A DNA stretch of 32,574 nt from Myxococcota bacterium (GTDB lineage: Bacteria; Myxococcota_C; UBA6777), in assembly GCA_023150835.1 (NCBI GenBank), contig JAKLKB010000075.1, forward strand, positions 1-32,574, in the 5' to 3' direction. Every line of letters begins with the position of its first letter. The first letter of the stretch is position 1. The notes under the pieces are model-generated. The model was not told the DNA's origin. It searched no databases and was given only the letters and a program-made list of their open reading frames with translations. The translations under genes and the position numbers were made by a program. Below, in pieces: positions 10,452 through 31,940 of this stretch.

Positions 10452-10528
10452 GCCTCCTCTATCCGCCTTTTCACGCTTTTTGATGACGGGCGGTGATCTC
10501 ACCCCACCCCAAACCAGTAGGTTCGCGT

Positions 10529-12970
10529 ATGCTTTGGCTTCTCATCGCCGCCATCTGCACCGTACTCCTTGTGATGGTGCTTTCTCCTTTCCGACAACCT
10601 TATTCCTTCGATGAATCCGTCTTTGGTGACGCTACACACAAAGAGATCCACGCTCGTCCCGAAGACCCCGACCCTTCCGCCGTTTCCGATGCCGCAGAAT
10701 ATCCCGCAGACCCCACAGTCCCCGCAGCATCGAAAGGCAAATCACAAACCACAACAGAAAAGAAGTCCACCGAAAAAAAGCCCACAGAAAAGAAGTCCGC
10801 TTCGTTGGGCGTGGTCTTTGGGTTGCTTTGGGTGGGGTCTGCGTGGGGTGCTCCTCCGTCTTCTCTTCCTACATCGCACCCCCGCTCGATAAAGCCTCCG
10901 CAGGCAAGACACCTTGCACCCGCTTCTCGTGAGGCTTTGCATGGAAGACGCCTTGCACCCGCTTCTCGCGAGACTTCGCGCACCAACAACACACCCGCAG
11001 CCGAACGGACAGAGAGCATTAAGATCGACGAGCAAGGTCTTTTGCGCCACAACACCCAACGCATCGATCTTGCGAACATGGTGCGCCTTGGCTTTGCATG
11101 GAAACAACAACAGCCCGCCCCGACGCTACGCCTGTTGATCCATCCTCGCGCACCCTACGGCGTGATCCGCACCGTACAAAGTGTGTTGCGTGGAACGGGC
11201 CTCTCCTTTACCGAAGAAACAGACCTTTCTGTCCCTTCCATCAGACAACTTCCCCCCACTCCGATCTCGCCCACAGCATCGGCTGATCCGACGCCTACAG
11301 CAAAGCCACAGCCTTCTCCTGCGCAAGAGGATCCAAGTCAGATCGCATGGCACACCGTTGCTCTTGCGACAGAGGCTGAACTCAAAACCCCCGCCAATCT
11401 GGAGATCCGTGCGCAACTGGTCTCGCCCCAAGGCCAACCCATCCCGTCCCTTGCAACGGGCATTACGCGCTACGTCGGAAAGCGACGCCAACCACTCGCT
11501 CGCCAACGCAGCAACGCCCTCGGATTGGTCCGCTACGCCATCCTCCGCACCCCACAAGATCACCTCCGCATCGCTGTTCTTTCCCCCCAAGGCTATCTCG
11601 AATTCCCCGTCCCGCTCCAAGACGCCGCCCAAGGGATCCTCTACCTTCAAATCCCCATCTCTCTCGCTCCCGCACAAGCCTCTGTTTCCGCAACAAACGC
11701 TGCGCGAATTCCTACGCCCTCGGTATCAAAAACCAAGCAGCCGCCCGCAGCATTATCGACCTCGAAGTCCACAAACGCCCCACCCTCGGCATCGCAGCCC
11801 ACGCAAACTCCCGTATCCTCGACGCAACGCCCGACACAGGCTACCTTGGGGGCGCAACAGCCCACGCAGACACCAACTCCTGCGCGGCCTGTGCCATCCA
11901 ACAATGCAGAACAGGCGCGTTTGGCGCGTATCCGCCCTGCGGAGATGCTTCCGCCTTCTGCCTCCAACGATCCGCTGTGGCAAAGCGTCCCCTTGGGTCG
12001 AGCCGAAGACCTCCCTGCATTCGGCGGGATCGAGTTGCGCGGTCGGATCTTTCTTGCGGATGGAGCGCCCGCTGCCGATATGCCCACAGGCTTGTTGCTG
12101 CGACAAACAGAGCGCCATAAGCCCATCGGGCGTTCGCGCACAGACAAACAAGGCCGCTTTCGTTACCTTGTTTCTCCCGATCGGACGAGGCTTTATGACG
12201 TGGTGGTACTCTACGCGAACCGCCTGCACCTACAGTCTTTGCCGCTACCTGCCGAACCCAAGCCTCTCCCCGATTACGTCTTACGCCTCGATCTTCGGGC
12301 TTTGCACAAGCTGTTTGCAGAAGGTGTGAGCATCGTCGTAGAGCGCCTTTCTTCGGAGGCTTTGCGGGTGACCCAATTTGTTTCGCTGTTGTTTCATCAG
12401 AATGACGCGAACACCAAGGCCGAGATCGTCTTGCCCCTGCCCTCAAACCACGCCAAAGTTGAACTCGACAAACAGATCGCCGCGTTCAAACCCAACGTCT
12501 TGCCTCGTTCGATTCAGTTTACCGCGTCCATGACTCCCGGGCGAAATCGCTTTGCTTACAGTTATTTGCTTCCATTGCAAGATGGGCGCAGCCAGATCGA
12601 TCTGCTTGTCGCTTTCCCAAGCGAACAAGTGGCTCTGTTTTTGGACCCTGCGCTGCGTCTCGATCCGCAACGTGCTTCAAGAACCGTCAAGCTCGGAGAT
12701 CCCGGACAAGAGCGAAACTTCGCGATGTTCCAATTGCCCTCTCTCAACCGACCGGGCCTTGCGCTTGCGCTTTCCATCGCCGATCCCACCTATGTCCCGC
12801 AAAGTCGACTCATGGCTTGGTTGCGCGAATGGAAGCAACAACCCAATAAACGCAACAAACTTCTCGGTCTATCCGTCCTTTTGGTGCTTTCTTTTCTCGG
12901 AGCCTTTTTGCTCCTTGCAAGCCCTTCTCCCCGCCCTACCGAATCCGAACGCAAAACCAAAACCGCGTGA
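10529..12970 (+). CDS. Hypothetical multidomain membrane protein: ExbD/TolR-like domain, two carboxypeptidase-regulatory/Ig-like domains, C-terminal TM
   Basis: N-terminal TM; second signal-like segment ending SAWGA; IKIDEQG ... LLIHPRAPYGVIRTVQSVLRGTG resembles an ExbD periplasmic domain; repeated G.P ... RTDKQGRFRY-type units; TM LLGLSVLLVLSFLGAFLLL. Confidence 0.65.
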   Translation: MLWLLIAAICTVLLVMVLSPFRQPYSFDESVFGDATHKEIHARPEDPDPSAVSDAAEYPADPTVPAASKGKSQTTTEKKSTEKKPTEKKSASLGVVFGLLWVGSAWGAPPSSLPTSHPRSIKPPQARHLAPASREALHGRRLAPASRETSRTNNTPAAERTESIKIDEQGLLRHNTQRIDLANMVRLGFAWKQQQPAPTLRLLIHPRAPYGVIRTVQSVLRGTGLSFTEETDLSVPSIRQLPPTPISPTASADPTPTAKPQPSPAQEDPSQIAWHTVALATEAELKTPANLEIRAQLVSPQGQPIPSLATGITRYVGKRRQPLARQRSNALGLVRYAILRTPQDHLRIAVLSPQGYLEFPVPLQDAAQGILYLQIPISLAPAQASVSATNAARIPTPSVSKTKQPPAALSTSKSTNAPPSASQPTQTPVSSTQRPTQATLGAQQPTQTPTPARPVPSNNAEQARLARIRPAEMLPPSASNDPLWQSVPLGRAEDLPAFGGIELRGRIFLADGAPAADMPTGLLLRQTERHKPIGRSRTDKQGRFRYLVSPDRTRLYDVVVLYANRLHLQSLPLPAEPKPLPDYVLRLDLRALHKLFAEGVSIVVERLSSEALRVTQFVSLLFHQNDANTKAEIVLPLPSNHAKVELDKQIAAFKPNVLPRSIQFTASMTPGRNRFAYSYLLPLQDGRSQIDLLVAFPSEQVALFLDPALRLDPQRASRTVKLGDPGQERNFAMFQLPSLNRPGLALALSIADPTYVPQSRLMAWLREWKQQPNKRNKLLGLSVLLVLSFLGAFLLLASPSPRPTESERKTKTA

Positions 12971-14079: not shown

Positions 14080-14661
14080 CTTGTGCCTCCGTCGGGCTTT
14101 TCTGCTTGCCTACATTTCAACGCTATCGTTTTGTCGCTCACCGTCGACGACAGCCGCTCCTGTGCGCCCTCTGCTTTAACGTTTGTTGCGTTTCTTGCAC
14201 AGTCCCCCTGTTCGGTATCTATCGAAAACTCCGGCACATCGGCGTGTTTTGTCTCCATCAACAGACTGCTTGTGCTGAAGCATACGAAAAATTCTTTGAG
14301 CGTGGAAAAAGGCGGGTGCAGATATCTTGTGAGGGCGAGGTTTGATAGACGAGACAATGGAAGCAAAAGCAACGCAGTCTATTTTGATTTACCTTGCGAA
14401 GAGCAACGTTTTCTCAGTCGAGGTTTCAGACTTCGCCTGACGATTGTCAGTTGCCGAAAGAGCAGCCTAGAGGCGGAGATTTGACGAAAAAAATTTTTCT
14501 TTTGGGGGATTGACTGCGAAGAATGGCTTGACAACAGGCGATACGTGTTATACAAGCCTTTGTGTGGCTGTCAAACTTGTCAGCAAACCTCTCTTCTTCA
14601 ACTAAGAAGAACATTAAACTTGCAAGACCGATCATCTTGCAATGGCTACAAAGGAGTGATT

Positions 14662-15357
14662 ATGTCGGATAAAGCGGCAAAGAAGAAGATTCGCGTGGTA
14701 TTGGTGGACGATCACACGTTGGTGCGGGATGCGTTGATTCGTTTGTTGGAATCGGACAAAGATATCCAAGTGGTTGCAGGCGGTGGAACCGCAGCAGAAG
14801 CACAAAGCTTGGTCGAAAAACACAAGCCCGATGTTTTGATTATGGACATCGAACTCCCTGATCAAAATGGACTTGTGGCTGGCCGCGATCTGTTGCTCGA
14901 AAACCCCAAATTGAATGTGATCTTTTTGACCATGCACCACCACGAAGAATACGCGTTGCGTGGTTTGCGTGCAGGCGCACAAGGTTACTTGCTCAAGACT
15001 TCTTCTCCTCAAGAGTTGATCGAAGCCGTTCGCTCGGTGTCCGTCGGTGGAACCTACATCACCCGCGAGATCATCGATCGCATCGCTCGTCACGTCGCTC
15101 GCAATGGCGGTCAGCACGCGTTCACACAACTTTCCGAGCGTGAATTCCAAGTGCTTCGTGGCTTGGCGATGGGCAAAAGCTGCAAAGAACTTGCAGAAGA
15201 ATTCGCTCTCTCCGTCAAGACCATCTACACCTACCGCACGCGATTGCTCGAAAAATTGGACCTCAAAAACGATATCGATCTGCTCCGCTATGTGTTGCGT
15301 CATAACCTGCTCGCAGGCGAAGACGAGCCCATGCCGCTCAACAACCCCGCCGAGTGA
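14662..15357 (+). CDS. NarL/FixJ-family (UvrY/GacA-like) response regulator, REC + LuxR HTH; no kinase in the window
   Basis: AAGGAG RBS; VLVDDH, LIMDIELP, FLTMH, GAQGYLLK; LSEREFQV ... LSVKTIYTYRTRLLEKL. Confidence 0.93.
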   Translation: MSDKAAKKKIRVVLVDDHTLVRDALIRLLESDKDIQVVAGGGTAAEAQSLVEKHKPDVLIMDIELPDQNGLVAGRDLLLENPKLNVIFLTMHHHEEYALRGLRAGAQGYLLKTSSPQELIEAVRSVSVGGTYITREIIDRIARHVARNGGQHAFTQLSEREFQVLRGLAMGKSCKELAEEFALSVKTIYTYRTRLLEKLDLKNDIDLLRYVLRHNLLAGEDEPMPLNNPAE

Positions 15358-15391
15358 TCGTGATCGAAACTTCTCGCTTGTTGTGATAACC

Positions 15392-15437
15392 AAAAAAGGT
15401 GCCCGTCTGAATGGATGTGCGCCTTTTTTCTTTTTTT
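15392..15437 (+). terminator. Intrinsic terminator after the response regulator
   Basis: aaaaaaggtgc ... gcgcctttttt hairpin followed by T tracts. Confidence 0.7.
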
Positions 15438-15488
15438 GGGGTAGGCGTGACGTGGTTGTGGCTGTTTCTGTCAACGAGTCTTTTCTCT

Positions 15489-15617
15489 GTTTTTGTGGGG
15501 CTTTGCCCCGCGCCCCGCCATAGACTGTCGCCCCTTGACCCCGTTTCGGCGGAGTGAATAGAGATTTTTCAAACCGACGACTGCACCGCTTGAAGCCTTG
15601 CGAACACGGGGGTTTTT
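15489..15617 (-). repeat. Dispersed repeat family 2, copy 2
   Basis: Reverse complement aligns to 7083-7209 and 18718-18846. Confidence 0.8.
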
Positions 15618-15748
15618 ATCCGTTGTGTATTGGGTGTGTAGTTAAGTTGTCATCAGTGTCATGTTTTCTATCCATGCAACAGGGGTAAAAAGCAAGGGAG
15701 TCTTTTTCGCTCACGTTGCTTCGGGATGGAAAATCAGATCAGACAAAG

Positions 15749-15764
15749 CGGCACGATCTTTGCC
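15749..15764 (+). promoter_or_regulatory. Putative sigma54 (-24/-12) promoter
   Basis: CGGCACGATCTTTGC: GG at 15750-15751 and GC at 15762-15763, separated by exactly 10 nt (consensus TGGCAC-N5-TTGC). Confidence 0.65.
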
Positions 15765-15774
15765 ATGTCGCCAA

Positions 15775-15954
15775 TCAACTCACGGAAAGAGCAAAGCACA
15801 AGGAAGTGCTTTGGAAGGCATGGATGCACAACTCGGATCAAGAAGAAAGCGCCGTTAGACGCCCAAGGATAGGGAAGGAAGCGGCAAGGTAGAGCAAAGA
15901 ACCACGGACGGTTCGACAAAAAGGCCCTCTCGGTAGAATCGGGAGGGCCTTTTT
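15775..15954 (+). ncRNA. Candidate CsrA/RsmA-sequestering sRNA (CsrB/RsmZ-like architecture)
   Basis: Nine GGA motifs before the terminator, seven of them ANGGA; loop-displayed in ctc-ACGGAAA-gag, caaagcac-AAGGAA-gtgctttg, gc-ATGGAT-gc, ccc-AAGGATA-ggg, gaacc-ACGGAC-ggttc; bounded by a sigma54-type promoter and a terminator. Confidence 0.65.
15918..15954. terminator. Bidirectional intrinsic terminator (candidate sRNA and SpoIID gene)
   Basis: aaaaaggccctctcg-gtagaat-cgggagggccttttt. Confidence 0.85.
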
Positions 15955-15991
15955 GCGTTTGTGCGTTAGGTGGTGGAGTGTGGGGGGCGAG

Positions 15992-18313
15992 TTAGAAGCG
16001 CTGGGAGGGAGCACGTTGTCGGACAAAGAGAAGGGCAAAGAGCAAGAAGAGGGCGAATGGAAGGGGGAAAGAGGTGGGTGGAGACGTTTGGCAGCTACAG
16101 CCTGCGCCTGTGGGAGCGAGTTTTGCTTTGCAGGCGGGATCTTGTGTGCAAGAGGGGTCGTTGCAGCGTTGAGAGCAGGGCGGGTTGAGGACGGTGGGTG
16201 CGGGCCAACAAGCGCTTGCTTGGAGGCAAGTGTAGCCTGTGGGGCATGCGCTATCGTTGGTACAAGGTCGCGAACAGCGGGAAGTTCCGCTGACTTCGGC
16301 GCAAAGATCGGTTTGGCAGTCGGCGTGTTGTGAGCAGATATCGCCGACAGGTCGTTTGTTGGTGGGGCAGGGCAGGTCGCCGTCTTTGCAGTCTTCGTCG
16401 ATGCCGTTGCCGCAGATCTCGGTGGCATTGGGGTGGATCTTGGGATCGTTGTCGTTGCAGTCTTGGGGGCCTTGGCAGTCGGGGCCGACACCATAGCCGT
16501 CTTTGTCTTTGTCTACGCAGTTCGTTGTACCGCAAGGACGGTCGCCTGCGGCGCAGTCTTCGTCGATGCCATTGCCGCAGATCTCAGGTGCGCCCGGATA
16601 GATCTTGGGATCGTTGTCGTTGCAATCGAAAGGCTCGGGGCATCCGACTTTTTGAGCGAAGTATCCGTCTTTGTCTTTGTCTTCGCAGGTGGGAGGGCAG
16701 GGCATATCGCCGTCTTTGCAGTCTTCGTCGATGCCGTTGCCGCAGATCTCGCGTGCACCCGGGTGGATCTTGGGATCGTTGTCGTTGCAGTCTTGGGGGC
16801 CTTGGCAGTCAGGGCCGACTCCGTAGCCGTCTTTGTCTTTGTCTACACAGTTGATCTTTGCAGAGACGGTGATCTCGATGGATAGGGCGGGTCCAAAGCG
16901 CTTGCCTTGTGCTTCGAGTTGCCAAGTGTTTTTGAAGGTTCCTGTGGTCGAAGGGGCTGTAAAGTTTGCTTGAAATGCCTTGGTTTGGCCGGTCTTGATC
17001 TGATCGGCAGAAGCGAGGTCGATGCGCGAGAGGCCGAGATCATCGCCTCCTGTGCGGACGAGCGCATAACCATCCGCACGAGACCACACGGTGGTTCCGA
17101 TGTTTTCGAGGGTCCATGTCTTTTGGAAGGCGTCGCCTGCTTGGACAGCGATGGGGTTGGGTGGGCTTTCTTGAGTGAGTTTGGCATCGTCGACGGGGGC
17201 GGCTGCGACATTTGCGATGTCGGAGCCTGTGTAATAATGGCGGATGATCTGTTCGGCTGTTTTTCCGCATTTGCCCATGGCTTCGGCTCCACGCTGACAG
17301 AGGCCGACACGATGCCCATACACGCCCCAACAAGTGCTGTTGCTGGGTTGTCCTTTGCAGATCACGGTGCAGGCTCCTGTCTTGTTTTCGATGCAGTCCA
17401 CAGACTGAAGGTAGGGAAGGGCTGTGGAAGACCACCCTGCGTCTTTGTTGCTGCGTGTGCTTCCGCCGCAGCTTGCGGCAAAATAGCCGCCCACAAGGGA
17501 AGTTCCGTGTACCGCGACTTGGGAGCGGGTTTCATCGACAGCGCGGGTGGTTGAGGCGTATTGGGTGGTTCCCCAGACTTGGCATTGTGTGGTGATGCAG
17601 ATCGCCTTGGTTCCGCCGCGTGTGTAGCTAACGGTGTAGCTTCTTGCGGCGATGGCTTGGGCTTTTTGGGCTTCGAGAGGAAAAGAAGATCCGATCTCTT
17701 TGGGCAGGACGCCTTTGAGGTATTCTTCGAGGGGCAGCTTGAGTTTTCCGCCGGGTGGAAGGGAAGTTCCGCCGACTTGGTAGGTGGTGGAAGTATTGTT
17801 TTCGATCTCGATGGTGGCAGGGACGGGATAGGTGGGGGCGTAAGGGATGGGGTCGAAAGGACGAGGGATATCCATCGGAGCAGGCTGTTCTTGGTGTCGG
17901 TGCTGGAGGGTTTCAGGAGCGCGGATCAGACGGTCTGCTTCGGCAAGCCGAGCCAGCGGTGGCAGCGCGATCAGGATATCACGGTGATGAGAAGGTGAGA
18001 GGTAGGCTTGGGTCGTACTCATATAACCCGCAGCTTCGGCGCGGATCGCGTAGCTGGATCGAGAAGGAGCCACAAACCGATGATGGCCGTTTGAGTCGCT
18101 GATTCCGAGGCGTTGGAGGCCGTCGATGTATAGCCTTGCGCCTACAATCGGCTGCTGCGTCAAGATATCGATCACGCGCACTTGCGTAAACATGGAGAGA
18201 TTGTCTGGGACACTGCGCAGCGGATGCGGAGTTCCCGCGCTGAGCAAGAGAGCCAAGCAAGCCCCCCCCAACCAAAGCAGACGTTTCAAGAAAAAACCAG
18301 CGTTCTGCATCAA
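15992..18313 (-). CDS. SpoIID/LytB-domain protein with carboxypeptidase-regulatory-like, NBR1-Ig-like and three MopE-like Cys/Asp repeats, and a MYXO-CTERM signal
   Basis: LEEYLKGVLPKE ... EAQKAQAIAARSY and GHRVGLCQRGA ... IIRHYY; FQKTWTLENIGTTVW; DKDKDGY ... DCNDNDPKIHPGAREICGNGIDEDC x3; GAGCSCQT + TM + RQR. Confidence 0.88.
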   Translation of the reverse strand: MMQNAGFFLKRLLWLGGACLALLLSAGTPHPLRSVPDNLSMFTQVRVIDILTQQPIVGARLYIDGLQRLGISDSNGHHRFVAPSRSSYAIRAEAAGYMSTTQAYLSPSHHRDILIALPPLARLAEADRLIRAPETLQHRHQEQPAPMDIPRPFDPIPYAPTYPVPATIEIENNTSTTYQVGGTSLPPGGKLKLPLEEYLKGVLPKEIGSSFPLEAQKAQAIAARSYTVSYTRGGTKAICITTQCQVWGTTQYASTTRAVDETRSQVAVHGTSLVGGYFAASCGGSTRSNKDAGWSSTALPYLQSVDCIENKTGACTVICKGQPSNSTCWGVYGHRVGLCQRGAEAMGKCGKTAEQIIRHYYTGSDIANVAAAPVDDAKLTQESPPNPIAVQAGDAFQKTWTLENIGTTVWSRADGYALVRTGGDDLGLSRIDLASADQIKTGQTKAFQANFTAPSTTGTFKNTWQLEAQGKRFGPALSIEITVSAKINCVDKDKDGYGVGPDCQGPQDCNDNDPKIHPGAREICGNGIDEDCKDGDMPCPPTCEDKDKDGYFAQKVGCPEPFDCNDNDPKIYPGAPEICGNGIDEDCAAGDRPCGTTNCVDKDKDGYGVGPDCQGPQDCNDNDPKIHPNATEICGNGIDEDCKDGDLPCPTNKRPVGDICSQHADCQTDLCAEVSGTSRCSRPCTNDSACPTGYTCLQASACWPAPTVLNPPCSQRCNDPSCTQDPACKAKLAPTGAGCSCQTSPPTSFPLPFALFLLFALLFVRQRAPSQRF

Positions 18314-18474
18314 AGCAACCTTTCTGGGCCGATATCGCGGAATGACCCACCGCCCTTTTTGCTCTTTGCGATGTCACCCACCAACATGCTTTGACTGCAC
18401 GCGGACGGTGGACATACGGCTCAAAACATCTAGCACATCTCGTTGGTTATCGGCAAGATCAACAAAAAAGAGTC

Positions 18475-18713
18475 CACGGAAAACACGGAAGGCACGGAAG
18501 AAGCGGAAGAATCGGAAGAAGCGGAAGAATCGGAAGAATCGGAAGAAGCGGAAGAAGCGGAAGAAGCGGAAGAAGCGGAAGAAGCGGAAGAAGCGGAAGA
18601 AGCGGAAGAAGCGGAAGAAGCGGAAGAAGCGGAGGAGGCGGAGGAGGCGGAAGAGGCGGAAGAAGCGGAAGAAGCGGAAGAAGCGGAGGAGGCGGAAGAG
18701 GCGGAAGAGGCGG
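18475..18713. repeat. 9-bp microsatellite (GCGGAAGAA)n, about 26 units
   Basis: cacggaaaa-cacggaagg-cacggaaga seed grading into gcggaagaa / tcggaagaa / gcggaggag units. Confidence 0.92.
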
Positions 18714-18717
18714 CCTT

Positions 18718-18846
18718 AAAAAAATCCGTGTTCGAGGAGGTTCAAGCGGCACCGTTGTTTGTTTGAAAAACGTCTGTGTGTTCCGCCAATACGGGGTCAA
18801 GGGGGCGGCGCTCCCTTGCGGGGCGTGGGGTGGAACCCCACCAACC
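18718..18846 (+). repeat. Dispersed repeat family 2, copy 3
   Basis: Aligns to 7083-7209. Confidence 0.8.
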
Positions 18847-31841: not shown

Positions 31842-31940
31842 CAACGCATCACAACACACGGAAAGAACAGTCCACGGACAACGACCAACGGGAGTTGCGC
31901 GCTTCGCAAAACACGGAACACACGGAAAAGGGGGCAGAAA

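Follow-up and report, generated by a model that had tools for sequence, protein, structure and literature searches.

A structured small RNA with GGA-bearing hairpin loops beside a NarL-type regulator gene in a Myxococcota-labelled lineage, a candidate CsrA-titrating RNA

In the portions of the literature cited here, CsrA is described from many phyla, RNA sponges that antagonise it are known from Gammaproteobacteria only, and FliW is thought to be the antagonist elsewhere (PMC4682653, PMC7652899). The CsrB-family small RNAs (sRNAs) are described there for Gammaproteobacteria (PMC4682653, PMC7652899, PMC7366521), and the preferred target of CsrA is given as a hairpin that exposes an unpaired ANGGA (PMC7366521). 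BarA-UvrY is reported to be unique to gamma-Proteobacteria, activation by UvrY/GacA proceeding through an upstream 18-nt inverted repeat, TGTAAG-N6-CTTACA, and a survey of 346 genomes with CsrA found either FliW or BarA-UvrY in 340 of them, with a strong anti-correlation (PMC4682653). Outside Gammaproteobacteria, the FliW-CsrA partner switch of Bacillus, Campylobacter and Geobacter is presented as the usual form of CsrA antagonism (PMC7652899, PMC13407953), and no CsrA-antagonist sRNA from there turned up in the literature searched, which is a statement about that literature and not about all that is in print. The locus described here lies at positions 15749-15954 of contig JAKLKB010000075.1 from the Myxococcota bacterium assembly GCA_023150835.1; the window, i.e. 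the whole stretch of DNA analysed, is 32,574 nt long. An initial annotation had proposed a CsrB/RsmZ-like sRNA at this site, driven by sigma-54 and located next to an orphan regulator gene. The features it described were all confirmed at their coordinates, and its interpretation was upheld in part, all but two of its computational predictions being borne out. The + strand at 15775-15954 almost certainly holds a real, structured, non-coding and conserved sRNA gene, and its product probably represents a new sequence family that would titrate CsrA in the manner of the Rsm/Csr sRNAs.

The locus was compared among the source genome (G000, 7.56 Mb), five relatives (G001-G005) and a G001-like metagenome strain (L055). 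G000, G001 and G002 are three species of one genus, and G003-G005 represent two other genera; the completeness of the six genomes is 64-94%. The same six genomes were returned at family, order, class and phylum scope in the genome collection searched, which argues for a small, deep, phylum-level lineage. The relatives were deposited as Myxococcota, Myxococcales or Deltaproteobacteria metagenome-assembled genomes, in agreement with the Myxococcota-like host suggested initially, and the DNA runs with the locus came from activated sludge and wastewater.

Structure and conservation of the RNA

The elements of the RNA, all on the + strand, are as follows.
15775-15954, +: candidate sRNA body of about 180 nt, based on a conservation jump, covariance-model matches and RNA-library contigs.
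15779-15791, +: hairpin 1, 3-bp stem with loop ACGGAAA, invariant in all four sequences and found by RNAalifold, GGA unpaired probability 0.72-0.86.
15792-15813, +: hairpin 2, perfect 8-bp stem with loop AAGGAA, two pairs altered on both sides according to the model alignment, GGA unpaired at a probability of 1.0 in each of the four sequences.
15818-15827, +: hairpin 3, GCA/UGC stem with loop UGGA, taken from the listed pairs.
15851-15885, +: hairpin 4, outer 6-bp stem and inner CCC/GGG stem (15862-15874) with loop AAGGAUA, from the fold, the model alignment and RNAalifold.
15899-15914, +: hairpin 5, 5-bp stem with loop ACGGAC, from the fold and the model alignment, unpaired probability 0.98-1.0.
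15917-15955, +: intrinsic terminator, 18-bp stem followed by UUUUU, bidirectional, from the fold, three pairs with two-sided changes.

The RNA was found directly downstream of a NarL/GacA-like regulator gene in all four sequences that carry it (G000, G001, L055 and G002), the covariance-model scores of the homologues being 238.4 bits for G001, 237.9 bits for L055 and 72.8 bits for G002 (E 1.9e-21). Identity between G000 and G001 is 56-64% at 15675-15749, exact over the -24/-12 island of the promoter, 100% at 15775-15799 and 88-100% through 15949, and this jump puts the 5' limit of the functional unit near 15775, where conservation sets in 12 nt past the -12 GC. A folding energy of -64.4 kcal/mol was computed for the + strand (z -5.07 relative to shuffles), and the G002 homologue has a z of -6.94.

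All five GGA-loop hairpins proposed at the outset, hairpin 4 being represented among them by its inner stem, form with standard pairs and carry a GGA in every loop. A(N)GGA is retained in hairpins 1, 2, 4 and 5 of all four sequences, the loops reading ACGGAA, AAGGAA, A(A)GGA and ACGGA(C/U) on stems that differ; a second AAGGA lies in the 3' internal loop of hairpin 4. In G002, a third two-sided change can be seen by eye in the 5-bp stem of hairpin 2, the hairpin 3 site holds a different small hairpin (GAUA-GGA-UAUC), hairpin 4 presents the loop AGGAA on a GCCC/GGGC stem, and the loop of hairpin 5 is ACGGAU. Every GGA of G002 (6/6) is predicted to be unpaired, with a probability of at least 0.86 and a mean of 0.95 versus 0.47 for all bases, and eight of the ten in G000 have an unpaired probability of at least 0.62.

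Covariation among homologous loci, which had been named as a check, was borne out by compensatory stem changes with the GGA loops kept in the relatives. In the four-sequence model alignment, 98.9% of cells are paired and seven two-sided pair changes occur, versus 1.7 +/- 1.2 in shuffles (0 of 500 reach seven) and 0-1 in slid controls, these figures coming from an alignment that was fitted to the model and holds effectively two lineages (G000/G001/L055 versus G002). RNAalifold independently recovered hairpins 1, 2, 4 and 5 and the terminator, with 43 pairs of which 7 are compensatory.

The strong terminator said to close the stretch was found, with its long stem and T-run, and is common to the RNA and a convergent gene for a SpoIID/MopE-domain protein (15992-18313, - strand). 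It was not listed by a simple terminator scan, probably because the A/U-extended stem uses up the T-run. Its G.U pairs in G000 and G002 are possible on the + strand only, which speaks for that strand.

The absence of a convincing gene from these 180 nt also held. Open reading frames (ORFs) of 48-65 aa overlap the RNA on the + strand (15661-15858, 15716-15892 and 15726-15872), and a rival explanation would be that the stretch encodes a small protein. No ORF over the RNA is common to G000 and G002, the latter having indels of lengths not divisible by three, and unrelated + strand ORFs of 27-91 aa; no Pfam match was obtained for the two ORFs scanned over the RNA, one per strand; and the substitutions keep base pairs, not codons. 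A coding function is therefore extremely improbable. The Rfam scan proposed for the candidate RNA was run, and no match at gathering score was obtained anywhere in the window, so that no family claims the RNA.

The initial count of nine GGA motifs is correct for the stretch ahead of the terminator; 15749-15954 as a whole holds ten GGA, the tenth being within the terminator stem, and, as counted initially, seven ANGGA. At least seven ANGGA per 150 nt are reached by approximately 0.05% of genome windows (78 regions, mostly tandem repeats). Since raw GGA density is only moderately unusual, the case rests on conservation and structure rather than on counts; what is beyond chance is the conserved loop display with covarying stems, together with the rarity of the promoter motif described below. 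Two genome-wide screens were not retained: a scan for GGA-loop hairpins with 3-bp stems was dropped as too permissive after returning thousands of clusters, and with a non-coding mask drawn from 120-codon ORFs read from stop to stop, no more than 1.3% of windows remained and the RNA locus itself was masked out, so its column was unused.

Further searches identified no sRNA-like GGA clusters beside the regulator orthologues and csrA of G003-G005. A 21-bit match at G005:C53 was rejected, since it consists of the last part of a 160-aa ORF and a terminator and has just one GGA hairpin. A scan of metagenomes with a 21-base pattern gave two loci, of which L055 is real and L056 is a chance match of the pattern.

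GGA-rich repeats of other kinds occur elsewhere in the source genome. A 9-nt unit (TACGGAAAG/CACGGAAAG) is repeated in long tandem arrays that are preceded by a conserved lead-in, about 70 nt in length, and in some cases close with a conserved 3' flank; they occur e.g. at G000:C117:9067-9617 (+), C97:11789-12278 (-) and C56:17781-18124 (-) and at many contig ends (C2, C3, C28, C61, C101, C139, C142, C186, C192 and C231). The unit equals the loop of hairpin 1, and in the register GTAC-GGAAA-GTAC it could form a row of 4-bp hairpins whose loops carry GGA; that such arrays act as a CsrA sink is speculation. The pattern ACGGAAAGYACGGAAAGYACGGAAAG has 249 matches in G000 and none in the other five genomes, and because of this restriction to one species the arrays were set aside as a separate young repeat family, not part of the RNA system. 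Another lead-in, GTCCACGGAAnnCACGGAA, precedes locus-specific purine-rich tandem repeats and was found in 66 copies in G000, 2 in G001 and none in the four others; in the window it occurs at 18472-18490 (+), with a GGA-rich tract at 18383-18798, and at 31869 (+). With a looser pattern, 38 of 69 copies lie at most 120 nt downstream of the end of a same-strand ORF, versus 338 of 2000 random positions. The genes on either side of the copy at 18472 both lie antisense to it.

Promoter, regulator gene and transcription

Upstream of the RNA, the following features were distinguished.
15749-15763, +: sigma-54-type -24/-12 element GGCACG-N4-TTGC (CGGCACGATCTTTGC), based on genome-wide rarity and a conserved island.
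15635-15651, +: conserved upstream box TGTGTAGTTAAGTTGTC, about 110-113 nt before the -24 element, a candidate activator-binding site.
15513-15551, no strand assigned: 39-nt core of a dispersed intergenic repeat, 59 genome copies at up to 5 mismatches.
15392-15429, +: terminator-like inverted repeat after the regulator gene, 16-nt arms, 81% complementary.
14662-15357, +: gene for a NarL/FixJ-type response regulator of 231 aa, REC and GerE helix-turn-helix domains (Pfam Response_reg 3.9e-26, GerE 6.6e-14).
14529-14555, +: sigma-70-like promoter of the regulator gene, TTGACA, spacer and TG-extended TATACA, read from the sequence.

The pattern GGCACG-N4-TTGC has 3 matches in the 7.56 Mb of the genome on both strands, and the element is identical, as GGCACGATCTTTGC, in G000, G001 and L055, where it forms an island between diverged flanks. 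The initial proposal of sigma-54 control was thus upheld in part: it is likely in these three sequences, where the motif is near consensus, but doubtful in G002, because the -12 GC is lost there and a sigma-70-like element (TTGGAA-N18-TATAAG with an upstream TG), which would give a nearly equal 5' end, overlaps the site. RpoN, which had been named as something to look for, is present in G000 (222.3 bits), as are 32 matches to PF00158, of which 19 score at least 111 bits and represent strong enhancer-binding proteins. Neither a sigma-54 activator domain nor a kinase (HisKA or HATPase) was detected in the 31 window ORFs scanned. A NarL-type regulator cannot itself activate sigma-54, and the neighbouring regulator may exert some other control over the RNA.

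The upstream box is kept as TGTnTAGTTnnGTTGTC in G000, G001 and G002, has no second copy in the genome when up to 1 mismatch is allowed, and is not a UvrY-type palindrome; the sole inverted repeat upstream of the RNA is the terminator of the regulator gene. The repeat core at 15513-15551 occupies the same site in G001 and L055 and is missing from the shorter spacer of G002; both DNA-like and RNA contigs break there, those of the RNA runs with loose ends. It is an insertion between the regulator gene and the RNA gene, outside the RNA system.

The regulator has an acidic DD pocket, a phospho-acceptor Asp in VLIMDIELP, and the T and K residues in its translation, and orthologues are present in all five relatives with 64-97% identity. 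Its start was set at the ATG at 14662, preceded by a Shine-Dalgarno (SD) sequence AAGGAG, and not at the GTG at 14545 that begins the longest ORF; since RNA-library contigs of three studies start at 14571, 14580 and 14593 and this ATG has a good SD, the protein is taken to be 231 and not 270 aa long. UvrY/SirA/GacA (NF007018) is its best match among 70 NCBIfam families at 165.5 bits, with MctR next at 156.7 bits. The initial label of a UvrY/GacA-like neighbour therefore stands for the REC and GerE architecture and for the best match, but the regulator is not a UvrY/GacA equivalog, as its score lies under the cut-off of 280. Farther upstream in the window, an ORF of 825 aa (10493-12970, + strand) gave no Pfam hit with an E-value limit of 0.01.

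Metatranscriptome contigs from four of four studies overlap the RNA; strand, ends and local level cannot be read from such contigs.
X15: contig 15515-15859, depth 11.1.
X17: contig 15515-15864, depth 3.9.
X19: contig 15661-15899, depth 2.4.
X20: contig 15641-15786, depth 7.6.

In X15 the depth of 11.1 over the RNA is accompanied by an almost uncovered convergent gene. That gene is mostly uncovered in three of the four runs and no contig extends over 15900-15954, uncovered parts not being evidence. Another X15 contig (14571-15543), which comes from the regulator gene, passes through the inverted repeat at 15392-15429, so that this terminator is apparently leaky, and overlaps the contig at 15515-15859; read-through from the regulator gene is therefore likely. 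The regulator-gene contig of X17 (depth 105.5) breaks off at 15350, slightly short of the stop codon, and its loose end is sequencing adapter, which hints at a defined RNA end near 15350 in that sample. The contigs fit the discrete transcript of about 180 nt that was expected initially and a longer one alike: they overlap the RNA, but they extend at least 115 nt upstream of its predicted start.

CsrA in the lineage and the function of the RNA

The source genome encodes one canonical CsrA (G000:C52, 70 aa; Pfam 79.8 bits), which scores above the NCBIfam equivalog cut-offs (NF002469, 76.7 versus 73; TIGR00202, 71.6 versus 70.1), so that the protein on which the initial proposal depended is present. 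CsrA was found in five of the six lineage genomes, the miss being the 64%-complete one, and the identities to the G000 copy (96, 69, 58 and 54%) argue that it is native to the lineage and not contamination. FliW, for which a search had also been suggested, was found in none of the six genomes (64-94% complete), and neither was flagellin. The lineage thus keeps CsrA, and FliW, flagellin and canonical UvrY were not found in it.

In the mechanism favoured here, the RNA of G000, G001 and L055 would most likely start from a sigma-54 promoter of its own (15749-15763) that an AAA+ activator switches on, with read-through from the upstream regulator gene probably adding some transcript, and transcription would end at the strong intrinsic terminator. 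The five A(N)GGA hairpin loops and the single-stranded GGA of the linkers would then bind several dimers of the organism's own CsrA, which would be titrated away from mRNAs, and the level of free CsrA would be lowered.

Several observations weigh against CsrA titration. CsrB, CsrC, RsmX, RsmY and PrrB_RsmZ are absent among the 11 weak Rfam matches obtained at E up to 10. At least nine GGA per 150 nt are found in 1.2% of genome windows (2432 regions), so that GGA density alone is weak evidence, and G000 is rich in purine- and GGA-rich repeats. The RNA was found in three of the six genomes only, all of one genus; covariance models R1 and R2 did not detect it in G003-G005, which make up the other two genera, though CsrA is present there, three of the five CsrA-bearing genomes are without the RNA, and neither blastn nor the covariance model identified a paralogue in G000. 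The covariation, as stated, comes from a model-fitted alignment of two effective lineages. At the promoter site of G002 (TGGCATACTTCGTGA, TGGCAT...GTGA) the -12 GC is not kept, and the UvrY inverted repeat has no match at up to 3 mismatches in 15360-15780, its five matches elsewhere in the window equalling the chance expectation of 5.0. Finally, all four contigs begin 115-260 nt ahead of 15775, and they all stop short of the terminator.

The sRNA may be real and structured and have another job, as a base-pairing riboregulator or as the ligand of another RNA-binding protein, and its GGA loops would then be seeds or SD-like sequences, not CsrA sites. Structure and conservation are silent on the partner, the RNA is missing from two other CsrA-bearing genera, and there is a myxobacterial precedent in Pxr, an sRNA downstream of a response-regulator gene with a sigma-54 promoter, for which the portion of the source drawn on gives no description as a CsrA sponge (PMC5568312). 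A GGA in five of five hairpin loops, with every GGA of G002 unpaired, is however a specific signature of a CsrA ligand, and it occurs where CsrA is present and FliW (0/6) and canonical UvrY were not found; another job is thus unlikely, without being far-fetched. Alternatively, the RNA might not be an independent gene and might represent the structured 3' end of the regulator transcript, a long 3' untranslated region or read-through product that is perhaps processed, the sigma-54-like motif being unused. The X15 contigs that join across the weak, 81% complementary terminator agree with this, as do the sequence upstream of 15775 included in all four runs and the -12 GC not kept in G002. It is nevertheless rather improbable, given that 15675-15749 is the least conserved part of the region, that the -24/-12 island shows no difference and conservation returns precisely at 15775, that the motif is one of three in the genome, and that the sigma-70-like element of G002 would give nearly the same 5' end; this alternative is about the production of the RNA, and CsrA could bind the RNA under it as well.

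A segment that has no function as RNA, being either intergenic DNA that is GGA-rich by chance or the remains of a repeat beside a bidirectional terminator, would fit the many GGA-dense regions and the species-specific tandem arrays of this genome. The RNA is single-copy and has no tandem repeat, its conservation contrasts with that of the sequence just upstream, its stems show compensatory changes and its synteny is kept in three species, which makes this explanation very improbable. CsrA titration by an sRNA of a new family is thus the reading retained. The wider proposal is tentative and on balance doubtful: a complete RNA-based Csr circuit may have arisen or survived outside Gammaproteobacteria, in a lineage without flagellum and FliW. 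CsrA would be antagonised there by a sponge of an unrelated family that is under sigma-54 and an enhancer-binding protein, is genetically linked to a GacA-like regulator and in part shares its transcript. If true, it would represent a convergent reinvention of Gac/Rsm logic and would contradict the confinement of sRNA antagonists of CsrA to gamma-Proteobacteria.

If CsrA binding holds, an Rsm-type decoy can evolve repeatedly from unrelated sequence and could be driven by sigma-54, and searches by GGA-loop architecture, not by homology, would be justified in other CsrA-bearing phyla.

Comparison with known systems

In Myxococcus xanthus, the Pxr locus resembles the present one in its order of a regulator gene, a spacer of a few hundred nt with a sigma-54 promoter, an sRNA with multiple stem-loops and a terminator (PMC5568312). 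The neighbour of Pxr, Nla19, is a sigma-54 activator, whereas the neighbour here is of NarL type, and Pxr, which was compared by description only, has 108 nt and three stem-loops, with no CsrA link or GGA-loop pattern ascribed to it in the portion of that source drawn on (PMC5568312). In contrast to the lineages that use the FliW-CsrA partner switch, the six genomes yielded neither FliW nor flagellin within their 64-94% completeness, and that module seems to be absent here.

As in the BarA-UvrY and GacS-GacA systems, a REC and GerE regulator with UvrY/SirA/GacA as its best match adjoins the RNA in all three species, and transcripts apparently run from the regulator gene into the RNA; unlike those systems, the regulator is under the family cut-off and no kinase was found among the scanned window ORFs. 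With RsmX, RsmY and RsmZ of Pseudomonas and CsrB and CsrC of E. coli, the candidate RNA shares a non-coding character, several unpaired A(N)GGA in hairpin loops and linkers (as the class is described in PMC7366521 and PMC7652899), an intrinsic terminator and a genome that has CsrA and in which FliW was not found. It differs from them in having no sequence or structure match to their Rfam families, in its host, a Myxococcota-labelled phylum-level lineage and not a gammaproteobacterium, in a probable promoter of sigma-54 type and not a UvrY/GacA-activated sigma-70 promoter, in being single-copy, and in lacking the 18-nt UvrY inverted repeat. The candidate RNA thus appears to match RsmY, RsmZ and CsrB at the level of predicted RNA architecture, terminator, presence of CsrA and failure to find FliW. 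What would be new is the Csr/Rsm decoy architecture in an RNA family unrelated to the known ones, a new phylum-level host, a probably different promoter type and a CsrA lineage in which neither FliW nor canonical UvrY was found, and the RNA would be a candidate for the first CsrA sponge outside Gammaproteobacteria.

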